From NCBI GenBank assembly GCA_947628085.1, contig CANQYM010000009.1:3698-67697 (forward strand): a DNA stretch of 64,000 nucleotides, written 5' to 3'. Positions 3,917 through 12,398 of the stretch are shown here, in pieces. Position 1 is the first letter of the stretch; every line of letters starts with the position of its first letter. Position numbers and translations under genes: made by a program. The notes beneath the pieces are model-generated. The model was not told the origin of the DNA and made no database searches. It worked only from the letters and a program-made list of their open reading frames with translations. Origin of the DNA: an uncultured Clostridia bacterium. Its GTDB lineage: Bacteria > Bacillota > Clostridia > TANB77 > CAG-508.

Positions 3917-5737
3917 ATGGAAAAATTAAAAGAAATAAATATAAGCTTTTTTCTATTACTTGTGCTTTTTATGCAAGTAATTATTTCAGATACTATTATT
4001 TATTTTTTTAATGCAAGATATATAGTTGCTCAAATTATTGGATTAATAATTAACATTATAATTAATATATTACTAATTAAAAAAGTTTATAAAATAAAAC
4101 ATGATTTTTCAAAATGGGATAGTATATTTTTTATTATAATATTCCTAATGTTTATTGCAACAATTGCTTTTCCAAATAGATTAAGTGATACTTATACATA
4201 TCACTTATACTTACAAAAATATACATTTACAGATAAAATAAATGAAGACTTTTTTCCTGGAAGAACTGTAACATCTTTTATTTTTCCAATTATTGATAGA
4301 TTATTTTATTTATTTAGATCAAAACTAGGATTTAGATTAGGAACACTACCATCATATTTCATATTCATAGTAATTTTCTATCAAATAAAAAAAATAATAA
4401 AAAAATTTGTAGGTGAAAACTTAAAACCTTATCAGTTATCAATATTATCTATATTACCAATAGGCACCTTTATTTTATTACAACAAGTAGGATCATACTA
4501 TATAGATAATTTTTCGGTGAGCCTACTACTAGAGTTTTCATATATTATATTATTTGAAAATGAAAACTTATTTAAAAACAAGAAAAGACTATACTTTTTA
4601 GCATTTTTGGTTGGATTAATAGTTTGTACAAAACTTACAAATGCAGTTTATTTAATATTGCCAATCATATATATTTTAATACATAATATTAAAGATATAA
4701 AAAATATAAAGTGGTATGATTATATTTTCCTAATTATAACCGCTTTACTACCTTTGTTACCTTATTTACTTGATACAATATTGCAAACAGGAAGTCCAGT
4801 ATTTCCATATTATAACACAATTTTTAAATCTAAATATTTTGCAAATGAAAACTGGGTGGACAATAGATTTGGAACCAAAAATTTATTTGAAGTAATAGTT
4901 TGGCCAATATATATTATAATATTTCCTAGAAGAGCATATGAAACATCTAGAACAGACTTAAACTTTGGAATAGGGTATATAATTTCAATAATATATTTAT
5001 TATATATTTTATGTAAAAGAATATTTAAGAAAGAAAAAATAAAACTATCTACAAATATTTTATATTGCATATATATCATATATTTATGCTTAATATGGGC
5101 TAAATTTTCAATAGGATATACAAGATATGCTGGAATTATACCAGTTTTATCAAGCATACTTGTAATAAAATTACTAATTAGTCTAATAGATAAAAAAGCA
5201 ATTTTGTCTACAATAGTAGTTGCTTTTATATTAGCAGTTGCAAGCATTAGTGGATTTTATGAATGGATTACACATAACGTGCTTATTTATTATGAAAATA
5301 ATTTAGAAAACTTAAAAACAAATGTTATATGTTTATTAAAAGACCAAGACTATTTAAAATATGATATAGATGGAATATGGGGAGTAATAACTGATGATAG
5401 TGGTATTCCTTCAATGCTAAATGTTGATGACAGAATAGTTCAATTATCTACTGGATTTAAAATTGGAGAAACAGAAGCATCAGAAAAAATATATTGGGAT
5501 AATGTGTTAAACAATGATATATATGTTCCAATATATGGTCGAGATTCTGAGTTAAAATTAAAAGAATTAGATGATTTCCATTTTGAAATTACAGAAATAG
5601 CTAGTATATTGCCAAATGTATTATATCTTGAAAATGCTACTCCAATATATATAATTAAAGTTAAATATAATGAAAACAAAACTACACCTAATTTTATATT
5701 ATTTAATCAAATATTAGAAAATAAAAGTGATTTTTAA
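3917..5737 (+). CDS. Large polytopic membrane protein, possibly a GT-C type (ArnT/PMT-like) glycosyltransferase, with a soluble C-terminal domain
   Basis: 606 aa. The first ~430 aa hold more than 10 hydrophobic segments, and the C-terminal ~170 aa are hydrophilic. Function is inferred from architecture only. Confidence 0.35.
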   Translation: MEKLKEINISFFLLLVLFMQVIISDTIIYFFNARYIVAQIIGLIINIIINILLIKKVYKIKHDFSKWDSIFFIIIFLMFIATIAFPNRLSDTYTYHLYLQKYTFTDKINEDFFPGRTVTSFIFPIIDRLFYLFRSKLGFRLGTLPSYFIFIVIFYQIKKIIKKFVGENLKPYQLSILSILPIGTFILLQQVGSYYIDNFSVSLLLEFSYIILFENENLFKNKKRLYFLAFLVGLIVCTKLTNAVYLILPIIYILIHNIKDIKNIKWYDYIFLIITALLPLLPYLLDTILQTGSPVFPYYNTIFKSKYFANENWVDNRFGTKNLFEVIVWPIYIIIFPRRAYETSRTDLNFGIGYIISIIYLLYILCKRIFKKEKIKLSTNILYCIYIIYLCLIWAKFSIGYTRYAGIIPVLSSILVIKLLISLIDKKAILSTIVVAFILAVASISGFYEWITHNVLIYYENNLENLKTNVICLLKDQDYLKYDIDGIWGVITDDSGIPSMLNVDDRIVQLSTGFKIGETEASEKIYWDNVLNNDIYVPIYGRDSELKLKELDDFHFEITEIASILPNVLYLENATPIYIIKVKYNENKTTPNFILFNQILENKSDF

Positions 5738-9092: not shown

Positions 9093-9986
9093 ATGAAGTA
9101 TAAAAAACTACTAGAAGAATGTAAATTATGTCCTCATAATTGCAAAGTAAATAGATTAAATGGAGAAGTTGGAAGATGCAAAGCAGGTAGCAACGTAAAA
9201 GTTGCACTTGTAAATCTACATCATTTTGAAGAGCCATGCATTAGTAAAGAAAATGGTTCTGGAACAGTTTTCTTTTCTGGATGTAATATGAGCTGTAAAT
9301 ATTGTCAAAACTATAAAATAAGTCAAGAAATGCATGGAGAAGAAATTTCCATTCAAGAACTAGCAAATAATTTTCTAAAATTGCAAAATATGAATGCAAA
9401 TAATATTAATTTAGTTACTGGTGTGATGTATGTTCCACAAATAATTGAAGCAATTGAAATAGCAAGAAAAAATGGATTAAAAATTCCTATTATATATAAT
9501 TCAAGTGGCTATGAAAACGCTGAAACAATAAAACTTTTAAATGGATATATAGATGTATATTTGCCAGATATGAAATATTATTATGATGAACTTGGAAAAA
9601 AATTATCTGGTGTTTCAAATTATTTTGAAACAGCAAAACTTGCTATATTAGAAATGTATAAACAAGTAGGAGCTCCTAAATTTAATGAAAAAGGAATTAT
9701 AGAAAAAGGCCTAATAATACGCCATTTAATTTTGCCAAATCATTTGCAAAACACAAAAATGATTTTAAAGTGGATAAGTAAAAACATTAATAAAAATGTT
9801 TTTATAAGTATTATGTCACAATATTTTCCAACAAATAAAGCTTATGAAATAGAAGAAATAAATAGAAAATTAACAATAGAAGAAAATAATGAAATAAAAG
9901 ATTTTATAGAAAAATTAAACTTACAAAATGGATACATACAAGATGTGGAAGAAAATGAAGAGCAATATGTTCCAAAATTTAAATAG
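9093..9986 (+). CDS. Radical SAM protein (pyruvate formate-lyase-activase-like family)
   Basis: Radical SAM CxxxCxxC motif CNMSCKYCQN, plus an N-terminal Cys cluster CKLCPHNC. Confidence 0.75.
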   Translation: MKYKKLLEECKLCPHNCKVNRLNGEVGRCKAGSNVKVALVNLHHFEEPCISKENGSGTVFFSGCNMSCKYCQNYKISQEMHGEEISIQELANNFLKLQNMNANNINLVTGVMYVPQIIEAIEIARKNGLKIPIIYNSSGYENAETIKLLNGYIDVYLPDMKYYYDELGKKLSGVSNYFETAKLAILEMYKQVGAPKFNEKGIIEKGLIIRHLILPNHLQNTKMILKWISKNINKNVFISIMSQYFPTNKAYEIEEINRKLTIEENNEIKDFIEKLNLQNGYIQDVEENEEQYVPKFK

Positions 9987-10196
9987 ATTAAAATTTAATA
10001 GTATAAGTTTAATAAAATTTAGCAATAATAAAAACAAAAAAGAGGATTTCTTAAAAACCCTCAACAAATTAATTATAACATAAAAATTTAAATATATCAA
10101 GTTATAGTTTAATATGAAAAAGATATGAAAACAGAAGATAAAATTAGATAAACATATATTGCATTTATTAATCATATAAATTGATGAATTTTAAAT

Positions 10197-10225
10197 TTGA
10201 AATACAGATAGTTATGTGTTAATAT
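10197..10225 (+). promoter_or_regulatory. Candidate sigma-A promoter (extended -10) for the structured RNA
   Basis: TTGAAA, 17 nt spacer, TAATAT, with TG one nt upstream of the -10. Confidence 0.4.
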
Positions 10226-10232
10226 TAATCTA

Positions 10233-10451
10233 CAATATAAATTAAATATCAATTTTCCCTGCGTAGTGCGTATAGGCAGAATTTTTAGAACCTACAAAGT
10301 TTTGGATAAGGGAGCCTCATCTCTGAGTATGGCGTGTATGCTTACATTATATAGTAAGAAACCCAGGAATATTTAGGACGGCACCCACCTGTGTGAGTAC
10401 AGGTCCATAAAAATTCTTTTCACTTACGGCTTGAACGTGGGGTTTTTTTTG
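10233..10451 (+). ncRNA. Unclassified structured small RNA. Possibly 6S RNA (SsrS) or a cis-regulatory leader. The structured core is 10257..10442.
   Basis: About 43% GC by hand count in a ~27% GC genome, with no ORF. Long-range helices: 10257-10264/10435-10442, 10279-10287/10408-10416 (9 bp perfect) and 10310-10316/10380-10386. Local hairpins: 10341-10358 and 10387-10404. It ends in a hairpin plus U8 (10423-10450). Confidence 0.6.
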
Positions 10452-10493
10452 TTTAAATATAATTTTATAGAACAACATATTAATGGTTAACAA

Positions 10494-10522
10494 TTGAAAA
10501 ATTATGTAAATTATGATATAAT
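10494..10522 (+). promoter_or_regulatory. Candidate sigma-A promoter (extended -10) upstream of the GC-rich ORF
   Basis: TTGAAA, 17 nt spacer, TATAAT, with a TGn extension. Confidence 0.4.
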
Positions 10523-10618
10523 AAAAATAGCGTAATCATAAAACAAGGAGCAAAAAGCTCGCTCGTCCATACTATACAAAATAGGCGATGAGAAGTAAAA
10601 ATTGATTGGAGGTGCTTT

Positions 10619-11434
10619 ATGATTACTAGGCAACACGCCGCTCTGTTTGCAATGCAATTAGCTAGCAGATACGGCAACGACAGCGAAGGATTTAAGAAAC
10701 AATTTATGGACCGGATACCCTTTGTCCTTCTTCCAGATGCCATCAGGGCATACATTGCCCCGCGTCAGATGAGCCATTTCGAGAGAACACCTAACGCCAT
10801 AAACGTTTCCTGGATGGAATTTCCTTCCGAAAGAGTTTTGAAGGAACTGTCGAAAGAAACGGCTGGAGAAAGGGTTCGCCACAACCTCGCATGGGGATAT
10901 CTGAAGTGCGTTATCGGAGAAGACACAGCTCTCAGCATATTCGACCAACACAACTATGGGCATCGGCATTACCATGATCTTCGCATCCATATGCTCCAGG
11001 ATATCTGTTTGGATCGAATTTTGCGCGAGAATATGGTAGAAACCAGCCATCGATTTGACGACCACTTTGTGGTACGTCACAACCACAGCATTAGCATGAG
11101 AGGCGATCAGCTTCGTGCACAAATTGCTCTGTTTGAGGAGCTGGGTTTTATCTATCTCTGCGGAAAGGTATATGAGAGTACGGGTTTGGTGCTTGATGGC
11201 AATTGGTTTGACCGGTATGTTCTAGAGGCTTTGAAAAGGGCCTATCCAGAGGATCTGGCAGAAAAAACCTACAAGTACATCAAATTCTCTCCGGAACTGA
11301 GCCAGCGAATTAAGTCTTTGGATTTCCAAATCACAAGAAAAGAGCAAGAAAAGGTTGTTATCACGGAAGACCTTATCAATATTTTTGATATGCTCTATTC
11401 AAAGGCTGGCTGGTACACTTACCACGAGTTGTAA
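10619..11434 (+). CDS. Compositionally foreign ORF (271 aa): putative metal-dependent hydrolase resembling the Zn-dependent phospholipase-C-like family
   Basis: About 47-48% GC. It uses CGG/CGC/CCG/GCC/CTG codons that are nearly absent from neighbouring genes. SD GGAGG lies 7 nt before the ATG. The motif series H6...LLPDAI...SHFE...HDLRIHMLQD resembles the H / PD / SHF / HxxxD pattern of that family. This is recalled from memory and was not searched. Confidence 0.55.
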   Translation: MITRQHAALFAMQLASRYGNDSEGFKKQFMDRIPFVLLPDAIRAYIAPRQMSHFERTPNAINVSWMEFPSERVLKELSKETAGERVRHNLAWGYLKCVIGEDTALSIFDQHNYGHRHYHDLRIHMLQDICLDRILRENMVETSHRFDDHFVVRHNHSISMRGDQLRAQIALFEELGFIYLCGKVYESTGLVLDGNWFDRYVLEALKRAYPEDLAEKTYKYIKFSPELSQRIKSLDFQITRKEQEKVVITEDLINIFDMLYSKAGWYTYHEL

Positions 11435-11567: not shown

Positions 11568-12398
11568 ATGAACGAATCAAACGGAAGAAAAACACTAATA
11601 TCAGTAAAGGTATCAACTTTATTACTTATATTATTAGTGATAATTGTTTTAATTGTAATAGGAATAGTTATTGCAAATCAAACAAAAAAGAATAATGATG
11701 AAATAAATAATACAAAAGTTACAAATACACCTAGCGAAGAGCCTACGGAAAATAACATTGTAAGAGATAACTGGGAAGATGTTCAAATAGAAAATGATAG
11801 TTCTTATAATAGAGATTCATCTGTTAGTTCAAGATCTTCTGCACCAAGAGAGAAAATACAAGTTGTTTTATCAGATAAAGAAAATGTTGAAATAATACAT
11901 GAAAAAGAACCAGAGCCTGAGCCAGAAGTTGTTACAACACCAATTGAAGAAGTAACAATTTCAAAAGATATGGACTTAACAGTAAGAACAGGATTATCTA
12001 GAGATGATTTCATACTATTAATTTCTGGTGTGGAACAAGATACTTCAAATTTCTTTGAAGAAAATGCAGGATTAATATATGACTTATGTGAAAAATATGG
12101 ATTAAATGAAATTTTCTTTTGTGGATTAATTTCAGCTGAATCTGGTTGGACGATAGCTTCAAATCATAGAAGCACACATAATTATATAAGTTTAATGTCT
12201 GGAAGCGGATTAATTAGATTTGACTCAGTAGAAAGCGGATTAGAAAAAGCTGCTGAAACACTACATAACAATTACTTATATCCAGGCGGAAAATTTTATT
12301 ATGGACCAACACTTGCAGGAATGAAAACAAGATTTTGTCCAGCATCATCTACATGGGTAAATTTAGTTTATCAAAGAATGGCTCAAATTTTAAATTAG
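11568..12398 (+). CDS. Membrane-anchored cell-wall hydrolase with a C-terminal glucosaminidase-like domain
   Basis: N-terminal TM segment, a low-complexity linker (EPEPEPE), and C-terminal LISAESGWT...NYISL resembling N-acetylglucosaminidase (LytD/FlgJ-type) domains. Confidence 0.5.
   Translation: MNESNGRKTLISVKVSTLLLILLVIIVLIVIGIVIANQTKKNNDEINNTKVTNTPSEEPTENNIVRDNWEDVQIENDSSYNRDSSVSSRSSAPREKIQVVLSDKENVEIIHEKEPEPEPEVVTTPIEEVTISKDMDLTVRTGLSRDDFILLISGVEQDTSNFFEENAGLIYDLCEKYGLNEIFFCGLISAESGWTIASNHRSTHNYISLMSGSGLIRFDSVESGLEKAAETLHNNYLYPGGKFYYGPTLAGMKTRFCPASSTWVNLVYQRMAQILN

Follow-up and report, generated by a model that had tools for sequence, protein, structure and literature searches.

Identification and genomic context of a GC-rich intergenic RNA in a clostridial genome raises a simple question: whether the segment encodes a known regulatory RNA, a new class of RNA or no RNA at all. 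In the 64-kb stretch of DNA that was analysed here (the window), positions 10257-10442 have a GC content of 43.5% compared with 27.0% for the whole window, and 0.9% of 186-nt windows are as high. A sequence-only reading of this DNA had given ~43% and ~27%, and proposed a structured RNA with a 6S-like central bubble, its own promoter and a U8 terminator. The intergenic gap that it had put at ~630 bp measures 632 bp (9987-10618) and lies between a radical-SAM gene (9093-9986) and an open reading frame at 10619-11434, which we refer to as the orphan gene. The segment was described as free of open reading frames, and this holds with the exception of a trivial 48-codon frame with a TTG start on the minus strand (10347-10493), the sole one within the segment. 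Stops are present in all six frames of the 6S segment. The window neighbours include RecN, SigK, PrmC, WhiA and HemW, which together with the 27% GC content point to a spore-forming, low-GC representative of the Clostridia.

To answer this question, we combined an Rfam scan, structure prediction and comparison with related loci. The segment is almost certainly the ssrS gene of this uncultured organism, encoding a canonical 6S RNA of the Bacillus 6S-1 type. The 6S gene is real and already known, and it is not a new RNA class. 6S RNA is a widespread small RNA that imitates an open promoter and keeps the housekeeping RNA polymerase idle in resting cells.

Family assignment and secondary structure

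The scan against all 4227 Rfam families produced one gathering-level match in the 64 kb, to RF00013 (6S/SsrS) at 10253-10447 on the plus strand. This match is 195 nt long, scores 80.3 bits (E 3.2e-14; gathering score 46.4 bits) and covers model positions 1-187 of 187 without truncation. Such a scan had been called for in the sequence-only reading, and the single match confirms the RNA. The match also removes the novelty of a possibly undescribed RNA class, an outcome that the reading itself had foreseen. The parts of the gene are as follows.

10197-10202, plus strand: predicted -35 box TTGAAA, from a consensus scan; TTG at 10197-10199 is invariant in six close homologues
10217-10225, plus strand: predicted extended -10 element TGtTAATAT, with a 17-nt spacer; TG (10217-18), TA (10220-21) and AT (10224-25) are invariant in the same six
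10220-10225, plus strand: predicted -10 box TAATAT, from the promoter consensus scan
10226-10252, plus strand: weakly conserved segment between the -10 box and the RNA body, 57% identity in relatives compared with 89% for the RNA body
10253-10447, plus strand: 6S RNA (ssrS), full RF00013 match, identical in contigs L121-L124
10257-10276, plus strand: closing stem, 5' strand, in the minimum free energy (MFE) fold; pair probabilities 0.95-1.0; helices 1-2 are paired at 80-86% in 42 Bacillota, with compensatory changes
10278-10287, plus strand: helix P2 (downstream helix), 5' strand; partner 10408-10417, 9 of 9 pairs, probabilities 0.74-0.98
10288-10309, plus strand: central bubble, 5' strand, 22 nt; contains ACA at 10294-10296 with predicted template C10295
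10310-10316, plus strand: helix above the bubble, 5' strand GGGAGCC; partner GGCACCC at 10380-10386, 6 of 7 pairs
10317-10379, plus strand: apical arm, a rod with internal loops in the MFE fold and Rfam consensus; hairpin CUUAC/GUAAG at 10341-10358
10380-10386, plus strand: helix above the bubble, 3' strand GGCACCC, from pairing, alignment and close relatives
10387-10407, plus strand: central bubble, 3' strand, 21 nt; hairpin 10387-10393/10398-10404
10408-10417, plus strand: helix P2, 3' strand, from the MFE fold, pairing check and pair probabilities
10421-10442, plus strand: closing stem, 3' strand; the local hairpin 10423-10441 offers another terminator stem
10443-10450, plus strand: U8 tract, intrinsic terminator; the terminator scan gave 3 sites compared with 0.1 expected, and the tract is kept in relatives

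The closing stem, helix P2, an apical rod and a bubble with strands of 22 and 21 nt appear in both the MFE and the centroid fold, with pair probabilities of 0.74-1.0 in the main helices; the bubble strands had been put at ~22 and ~21 nt before. In the window, 42 of the 51 RF00013 consensus pairs are canonical, and a few non-canonical ones fall in the apical arm of the Rfam alignment. A script placed all six RNA strings quoted in the sequence-only reading exactly at their coordinates. It found pairing at every position of CCCUGCGU/ACGUGGGG (8/8, including two G.U), GAAUUUUUA/UAAAAAUUC (9/9), ACCUGU/ACAGGU (6/6) and CUUAC/GUAAG (5/5), and at 6/7 positions of GGGAGCC/GGCACCC, where an A.A mismatch lies at the centre.

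The MFE of -52.8 kcal/mol corresponds to a z score of -1.64 on the plus strand, with 11 of 200 shuffles folding equally well, and the minus strand has a z score of -2.72. As the fold energy is not beyond chance, homology and covariation were used as proof of the feature instead. The plus strand was assigned because six G.U pairs of the fold become A.C mismatches if read from the opposite strand (three of these are invariant among relatives), and because the predicted promoter and terminator have this orientation as well. The P2/bubble region has low posterior probability in the Rfam alignment, which pairs GAACCU (10288-93) with AGGUCC (10401-06), whereas the thermodynamic fold favours the hairpin in the 3' bubble strand; the bubble boundaries are therefore model-dependent.

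Comparison with known 6S-type RNAs

The window RNA resembles Bacillus subtilis 6S-1 (BsrA) in length (~190 nt) and in its succession of closing stem, P2, central bubble and apical rod. Both RNAs carry the GGGAGCC...GGCACCCACCUG flanks, and the conserved sequence around the bubble is present in the window as GGGAGCC at 10310-16, the GGCACCCACCUG region at 10380-91 and ACA at 10294-96, the last nearly invariant among 42 sequences. Further properties of 6S-1 are predicted for the window RNA: a 3'-strand hairpin formed in the free RNA, a product RNA that begins with G and is templated by the C of the conserved ACA, and a sigma-A promoter followed by a 5' leader. In B. subtilis, the leader of pre-6S-1 is trimmed by RNase J1 (PMC10578484). 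The 3'-central-bubble hairpin is found in free B. subtilis 6S-1 and is predicted in the consensus of 14 Firmicutes 6S-1-type RNAs (PMC8876501), and the hairpin that the sequence-only reading had drawn in the 3' bubble strand corresponds to this known element. In the window RNA its pair probabilities are 0.76-0.98, and it is 88% paired in the 42 sequences. Both marks of the 6S-1 subtype (PMC8876501) were thus found, the 3'-strand hairpin being predicted in the free RNA and the templating base being C. The two RNAs differ in helix P2, which is all A-U in the window RNA, with the strands GAAUUUUUA and UAAAAAUUC, and aligns with GUUUUGA/UCAAAAC of Bacillus 6S-1, and in the product RNA, predicted as 5'-GUAGGUUCUAAAAA in the window compared with 5'-GUUCGGUCAAAACU for B. 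subtilis 6S-1. The genomic context is also unlike that of B. subtilis 6S-1, with the window RNA placed between the radical-SAM gene and the orphan gene.

Escherichia coli 6S (SsrS), the founding member of RF00013, shares with the window RNA the family model, the overall architecture and a presumed function, namely mimicry of an open promoter, sequestration of the housekeeping holoenzyme and release through product-RNA synthesis. In Proteobacteria ssrS usually lies beside ygfA, and no ygfA-like gene is adjacent to the window 6S RNA. The 3' bubble strand of E. coli 6S is unstructured when free and forms a 9-bp extended hairpin after P2 unwinds (PMC8876501), whereas in the window RNA a hairpin of 6-7 bp is predicted already in the free state. 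Ms1 of Actinobacteria is, like 6S, a rod that binds RNA polymerase (PMC9130861); however, it is a longer RNA that binds the core polymerase and is confined to Actinobacteria, whereas the match of the window RNA is to the 6S model proper.

B. subtilis 6S-2 (BsrB) belongs to the same Rfam family and has the same rod-with-bubble shape, and the window RNA could be a 6S-2-like paralogue with a different physiological role in a genome whose principal 6S gene lies elsewhere. Some Firmicutes, including Clostridium acetobutylicum, have two copies (PMC8414754), and our view of this genome is 64 kb. We consider this reading unlikely, because the bubble of 6S-2 is less structured (PMC8876501) and the window RNA has the hallmarks of 6S-1, a stable hairpin in the 3' bubble strand and an ACA whose C is predicted to template a G-initiated product; the single Rfam match within the window argues in the same direction.

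Transcription unit and related loci

The sequence-only reading had proposed a promoter without giving its location, and a sigma-A-type site was found at 10197-10225; the proposed U8 terminator corresponds to T8 at 10443-10450. As 27 nt separate the end of the -10 box from the Rfam start, a 5' leader of ~20 nt is likely, and promoter geometry would place the transcription start near 10232-10234. The 6S gene thus appears, from its predicted promoter and terminator, to be an independent transcription unit.

Related loci were collected through the neighbouring proteins. An identical SigK neighbour protein was found in only four ENA metagenome contigs (L121-L124), which have the same gene order, 99.8-99.99% identity to the window and an identical 6S gene, and represent one strain-level population. 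The 6S family was found in ten further related metagenome loci from seven other lineages. Complete RF00013 matches of 78-86 bits were obtained for L205, L206, L211, L212, L213, L215, L216, L218 and L219, and a match of 75.5 bits, cut by the contig end, for L125; L208, in which the RNA is cut by the contig start, scored 41.9 bits. A search with the upstream radical-SAM protein provided 80 loci, and among the 20 scanned with Rfam the closest, L125, was the only one with a 6S gene. The remaining radical-SAM homologues lie in unrelated contexts, with a truA-like gene downstream in L126, and an nhmmer search with the single 6S sequence found nothing beyond L125. The search with the downstream orphan protein added six more lineages (L205-L208, L211/L212, L213-L215, L216/L217, L218 and L219/L220). 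All orphan loci that are long enough repeat the order radical-SAM, gap, orphan, PrmC, WhiA, HemW and HrcA, and every Rfam-scanned locus of these six lineages has a 6S match in the gap.

The orphan gene lies directly downstream of the 6S gene in seven other, deeply diverged lineages whose DNA was examined. This conserved adjacency and the shared orientation would fit a cis-acting leader of the orphan gene, such as a riboswitch or attenuator, in place of a free-standing RNA. We regard this as very improbable, however, since the RNA belongs to a trans-acting family and ends in a stem with a U8 terminator, and since the orphan gene has a predicted promoter and conserved 5'UTR hairpins of its own. 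The promoter is near-consensus (TTGAAA-17-TATAAT with a TG extension, 10494-10522), and the 5'UTR hairpin CUCAUC/GAUGAG shows compensatory changes. In two loci (L209 and L210) the orphan gene occurs in a different context in which no 6S gene was found, and it retains both the promoter and the 5'UTR hairpin. The orphan gene moves as a unit together with its predicted promoter and 5'UTR hairpin.

Conservation and covariation

Two alignments were used to evaluate whether substitutions in the RNA preserve its fold, a covariation analysis that had also been asked for in the sequence-only reading; the long-range helices do show compensatory changes in relatives. The first contains six close homologues, the window and five loci from five lineages, in which the RNA body has 89% identity and the flanks 57%. 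The window fold has 96.9% paired cells in these sequences compared with 34-50% for slid controls, and four pairs are changed on both sides, including C10315-G10381, which is U-A in L125.

The second alignment is broader. A pattern scan of GTDB genomes, with GGGAGCC/GGCACCC as the search pattern, gave at least 120 loci in many phyla, and 40 Bacillota from the matches listed were aligned with the window and L125 (42 sequences; MAFFT, not fitted to structure). The window MFE fold has 76.6% paired cells on these 42 Bacillota 6S RNAs compared with 42-51% for slid controls, a covariation score of 0.269 compared with 0.09-0.13, and double changes in 40 of 59 pairs compared with 25-34; the observed pairing and covariation values were reached by 0 of 500 shuffles. 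Helix 6 of the apical arm has double changes at 13 of 13 pairs. Applied to the same alignment, RNAalifold arrives independently at the closing stem, the GGGAGCC/GGCACCC helix, an internal stem and the 3'-bubble hairpin, with 15 of 28 pairs compensatory. The 100% pairing of the GGGAGCC/GGCACCC helix in the 42 sequences is fixed there by the search pattern, and its sole base-pair swap is seen in L125, a locus reached independently by way of the neighbouring protein. The full-length family match, now joined by conservation and covariation, bears out the earlier likening of the RNA to an open-promoter mimic of the 6S kind.

These data also bear on the suggestion that the RNA is an undescribed class with a 6S-like lower half and a branched or pseudoknotted apex, formed by pairing of GUGUAUGC (10334-41) with GCACCCAC (10381-88). 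The two octamers are complementary at 6 of 8 positions and some apical-arm consensus pairs are non-canonical in the Rfam alignment, but the two mismatches lie side by side and the pairing has a probability of 0.00. The pseudoknot would break the GGGAGCC/GGCACCC helix, in which L125 has the C-G to U-A swap, whereas the apical region is a rod in the MFE fold and Rfam consensus, and its helix 6 covaries at all 13 pairs. With a full-length match 34 bits above the gathering score, a new class is scarcely credible, and the branched apex is rejected. That the segment is a GC-rich palindrome that arose by chance, or codes for a small protein, as its modest MFE z score of -1.64 and the overlapping 48-codon TTG frame on the minus strand might suggest, has a negligible probability in view of the Rfam E value of 3e-14, the 89% identity of the body compared with 57% in the flanks, substitutions that keep pairing and not a reading frame, and stops in six frames.

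Proposed mode of action

Sequence, homology and covariation together establish the predicted mature RNA of ~190 nt as a long interrupted rod. Its proposed function is carried over from E. coli and B. subtilis, in which open-promoter mimicry, holoenzyme binding and release by product-RNA synthesis that unwinds P2 have been described (PMC8876501, PMC12005410, PMC9670815). Transcription would begin at the sigma-A promoter with its extended -10 element (10197-10225) and stop at the closing stem and U8 tract, and the 5' leader of ~20 nt would probably be trimmed later. The central bubble (10288-10309 and 10387-10407) would imitate the melted region of an open promoter. In stationary phase, by analogy, the 6S RNA would occupy the active-site cleft of the sigma-A holoenzyme and thereby sequester RNA polymerase.

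On the return of nutrients and NTPs, the 5' bubble strand may be used as a template. The B. subtilis 6S-1 product RNA is 5'-GUUCGGUCAAAACUA, with its first G templated by the C of ACA (PMC12005410), and its start site is nt 40 (PMC8876501). As C10295 aligns with this templating C, product-RNA synthesis is predicted to start opposite C10295 and to give the product 5'-GUAGGUUCUAAAAA, with a predicted 5' beginning of 5'-GUAGGUUC. The product RNA would invade helix P2 (10278-10287/10408-10417), the 6S RNA would refold around the pre-formed 3'-bubble hairpin, and the hybrid of 6S and product RNA would leave, freeing the polymerase. When the template was blocked in silico, P2 was lost and the 3'-bubble hairpin was kept, which fits the 6S-1 model of PMC8876501. 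A central bubble collapse helix is described for B. subtilis 6S-1 after P2 unwinding (PMC8876501), but this helix was not predicted for the window RNA in the template-blocked constrained folding; a short GUUUU/AAAAU pairing can be drawn by hand. Both holoenzyme binding and product-RNA release in this organism are thus presumed from the family to which the RNA belongs.

The downstream orphan gene

The orphan gene (10619-11434) encodes 271 amino acids and has a GC content of 45% in a genome of 27%. Its GC3 in the window is 0.51 compared with 0.10-0.15 for its neighbours, and orthologues show the same elevation (0.81 in L205, 0.61 in L216, 0.53 in L213, 0.46 in L219 and 0.43 in both L211 and L218) relative to neighbours at 0.06-0.24. 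The GC content of codon positions 1 and 2 is raised too. The elevation ends at the borders of the coding sequence, outside which the orphan gene has an AT-rich promoter and 5'UTR. Orthologues from the seven lineages are ~86% identical to one another for SigK, ~78% for WhiA and ~46% for the orphan protein. Synonymous sites are saturated in every gene, with the fraction of identical codons at conserved residues ~0.03 above the codon-usage expectation. This saturation between lineages implies that the high GC content of the orphan gene is maintained and is not the leftover of an old transfer; such a relic was rejected, as the synonymous sites are saturated and yet the GC content is high. We also rejected the 3' end of the 6S gene as an integration site for the GC-rich gene, as no direct repeat of this end flanks the gene. 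Neither the GC-rich region nor its leader matched an Rfam family at E values up to 10. Candidate causes of the enrichment are rare-codon selection, selection on the stability or structure of the mRNA, and a GC-biased process that acts locally.

The orphan family comprises 66 clusters at 90% identity, and when 1.84 billion clusters were searched with a profile, 231 representatives had E values up to 0.001. None of the members is named or has a Pfam domain, and searches of Pfam, NCBIfam, PHROGs and PDB sequences, together with a profile search of the PDB, gave no match to the orphan protein. Among the longer proteins of the family, no domain fusion is informative; a GrpE domain in one of them may stem from read-through during gene calling. 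The AlphaFold2 model is highly confident, with a pLDDT of 95.5 and a pTM of 0.92, and Foldseek comparison of this model with the PDB and BFVD gave no match, the best E values being 3.1 and 3.8, respectively. H6, D40, H53, E55, C97, E101, H124 and D128 are among the invariant residues, and these invariant His, Asp, Glu and Cys residues suggest a metal-dependent enzyme. A zinc site like that of P1 nuclease or phospholipase C, considered from the H..D..H..HxxxD spacing, was not supported (Foldseek best E 3.1, TM <0.2).

The 6S and orphan genes could conceivably form a functional module, in which the protein would act on the 6S RNA, the product RNA or RNA polymerase, for example in 6S processing or decay, or in the control of release. 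We consider such a module quite improbable. If it were true, the GC-rich coding sequence would reflect a selected property of the mRNA or its translation, and the 6S RNA itself would be ordinary.

Significance

This analysis adds one more 6S gene, in an uncultured gut clostridial lineage, which any Rfam-based pipeline would call. The practical gain is a clean annotation of the promoter, predicted product-RNA start and terminator, together with correction of the reading as a possibly new RNA class. The orphan family merits a separate look, as a rare family with no known fold that is encoded adjacent to 6S and whose GC content is kept far above that of the genome.

A GC-rich orphan gene downstream of 6S

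The gene next to the 6S gene and its leader were located at the following positions, together with orthologues from metagenome loci of other lineages (L-numbers).

10619-11434, + strand: orphan gene, 271 aa, directly 3' of the 6S gene
L205:4001-4822, L211:4001-4822, L213:4001-4804, L216:4001-4828, L218:4001-4804 and L219:4001-4834: orphan gene orthologues in lineages that share the 6S-orphan gene order
10494-10618, + strand: orphan-gene promoter and 5'UTR, found also, for example, at L205:3860-4000, L209:3850-4000 and L210:190-339
11568-12398, + strand: ORF, 276 aa, between the orphan gene and prmC

Across seven deeply diverged syntenic lineages, the third-position GC content (GC3) of the orphan gene is 0.43-0.81, compared with 0.06-0.24 in every neighbouring gene. 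Synonymous sites are saturated between these lineages, which rules out a relic of transfer and shows that the enrichment is a maintained state.

The gene is preceded by a near-consensus promoter of its own (TG-extended, TTGAAA-17-TATAAT) and has a 5'UTR of ~95 nt containing two small hairpins, GAGC-AAAA-GCUC followed by CUCRUC...GAUGAG. Compensatory changes in the second hairpin were found in nine lineages, as in CUUACU/AGUAAG in L209 and CUCACC/GGUGAG in L211. This element, which matched no Rfam family, accompanies the gene even in a different genomic context.

The encoded protein belongs to a rare family (231 representatives among 1.84 billion clusters) and had no match in Pfam, NCBIfam or PHROGs. 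AlphaFold2 gave a confident model of it (pLDDT 95.5), for which Foldseek searches of PDB and BFVD returned no match. The invariant residues of the family include His, Asp, Glu and Cys, suggesting that the protein is an enzyme.

Variation in the surrounding region

Among the relatives, L126 has the radical-SAM protein of highest similarity (70% identity). The RecN-SigK-radical-SAM order is preserved there and the next gene, in reads that contain frameshifts, encodes a truA-like pseudouridine synthase (L126:3877-4605). Both the 6S gene and the orphan gene are missing at this locus, so the lineage lacks the pair at that position.

The 276-aa ORF is missing from its position in all syntenic relatives examined, where prmC lies directly 3' of the orphan gene, and is probably a lineage-specific insertion. 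Its similarity to surface or peptidoglycan-hydrolase families and to endolysins is weak (NCBIfam E 1e-6 to 4e-6; PHROGs endolysin E 1e-4).

Further upstream is a gene for a predicted membrane protein.

3917-5737, + strand: predicted membrane protein gene, 606 aa, with weak LIC_10190 family and DUF8201 matches

Among contigs of the window's own population, it is intact in the window and L121. The L122 copy has lost 22 bp (window 4308-4329), and the L123 copy is interrupted by a nonsense substitution (position 4574). The contigs are otherwise 99.8-99.99% identical; these are two independent inactivations inside one strain-level population.

An alternative pairing in the 6S central bubble

The Rfam consensus pairs 10288-10293 with 10401-10406 (GAACCU/AGGUCC, 5/6 canonical). 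This pairing and the hairpin in the 3' strand of the bubble (10387-10393/10398-10404) are mutually exclusive because ACAGGU (10399-10404) can pair either way. The consensus pairing has an RNAfold probability of <=0.14 in the free RNA. It may represent a second conformation that matters when polymerase binds or is released.
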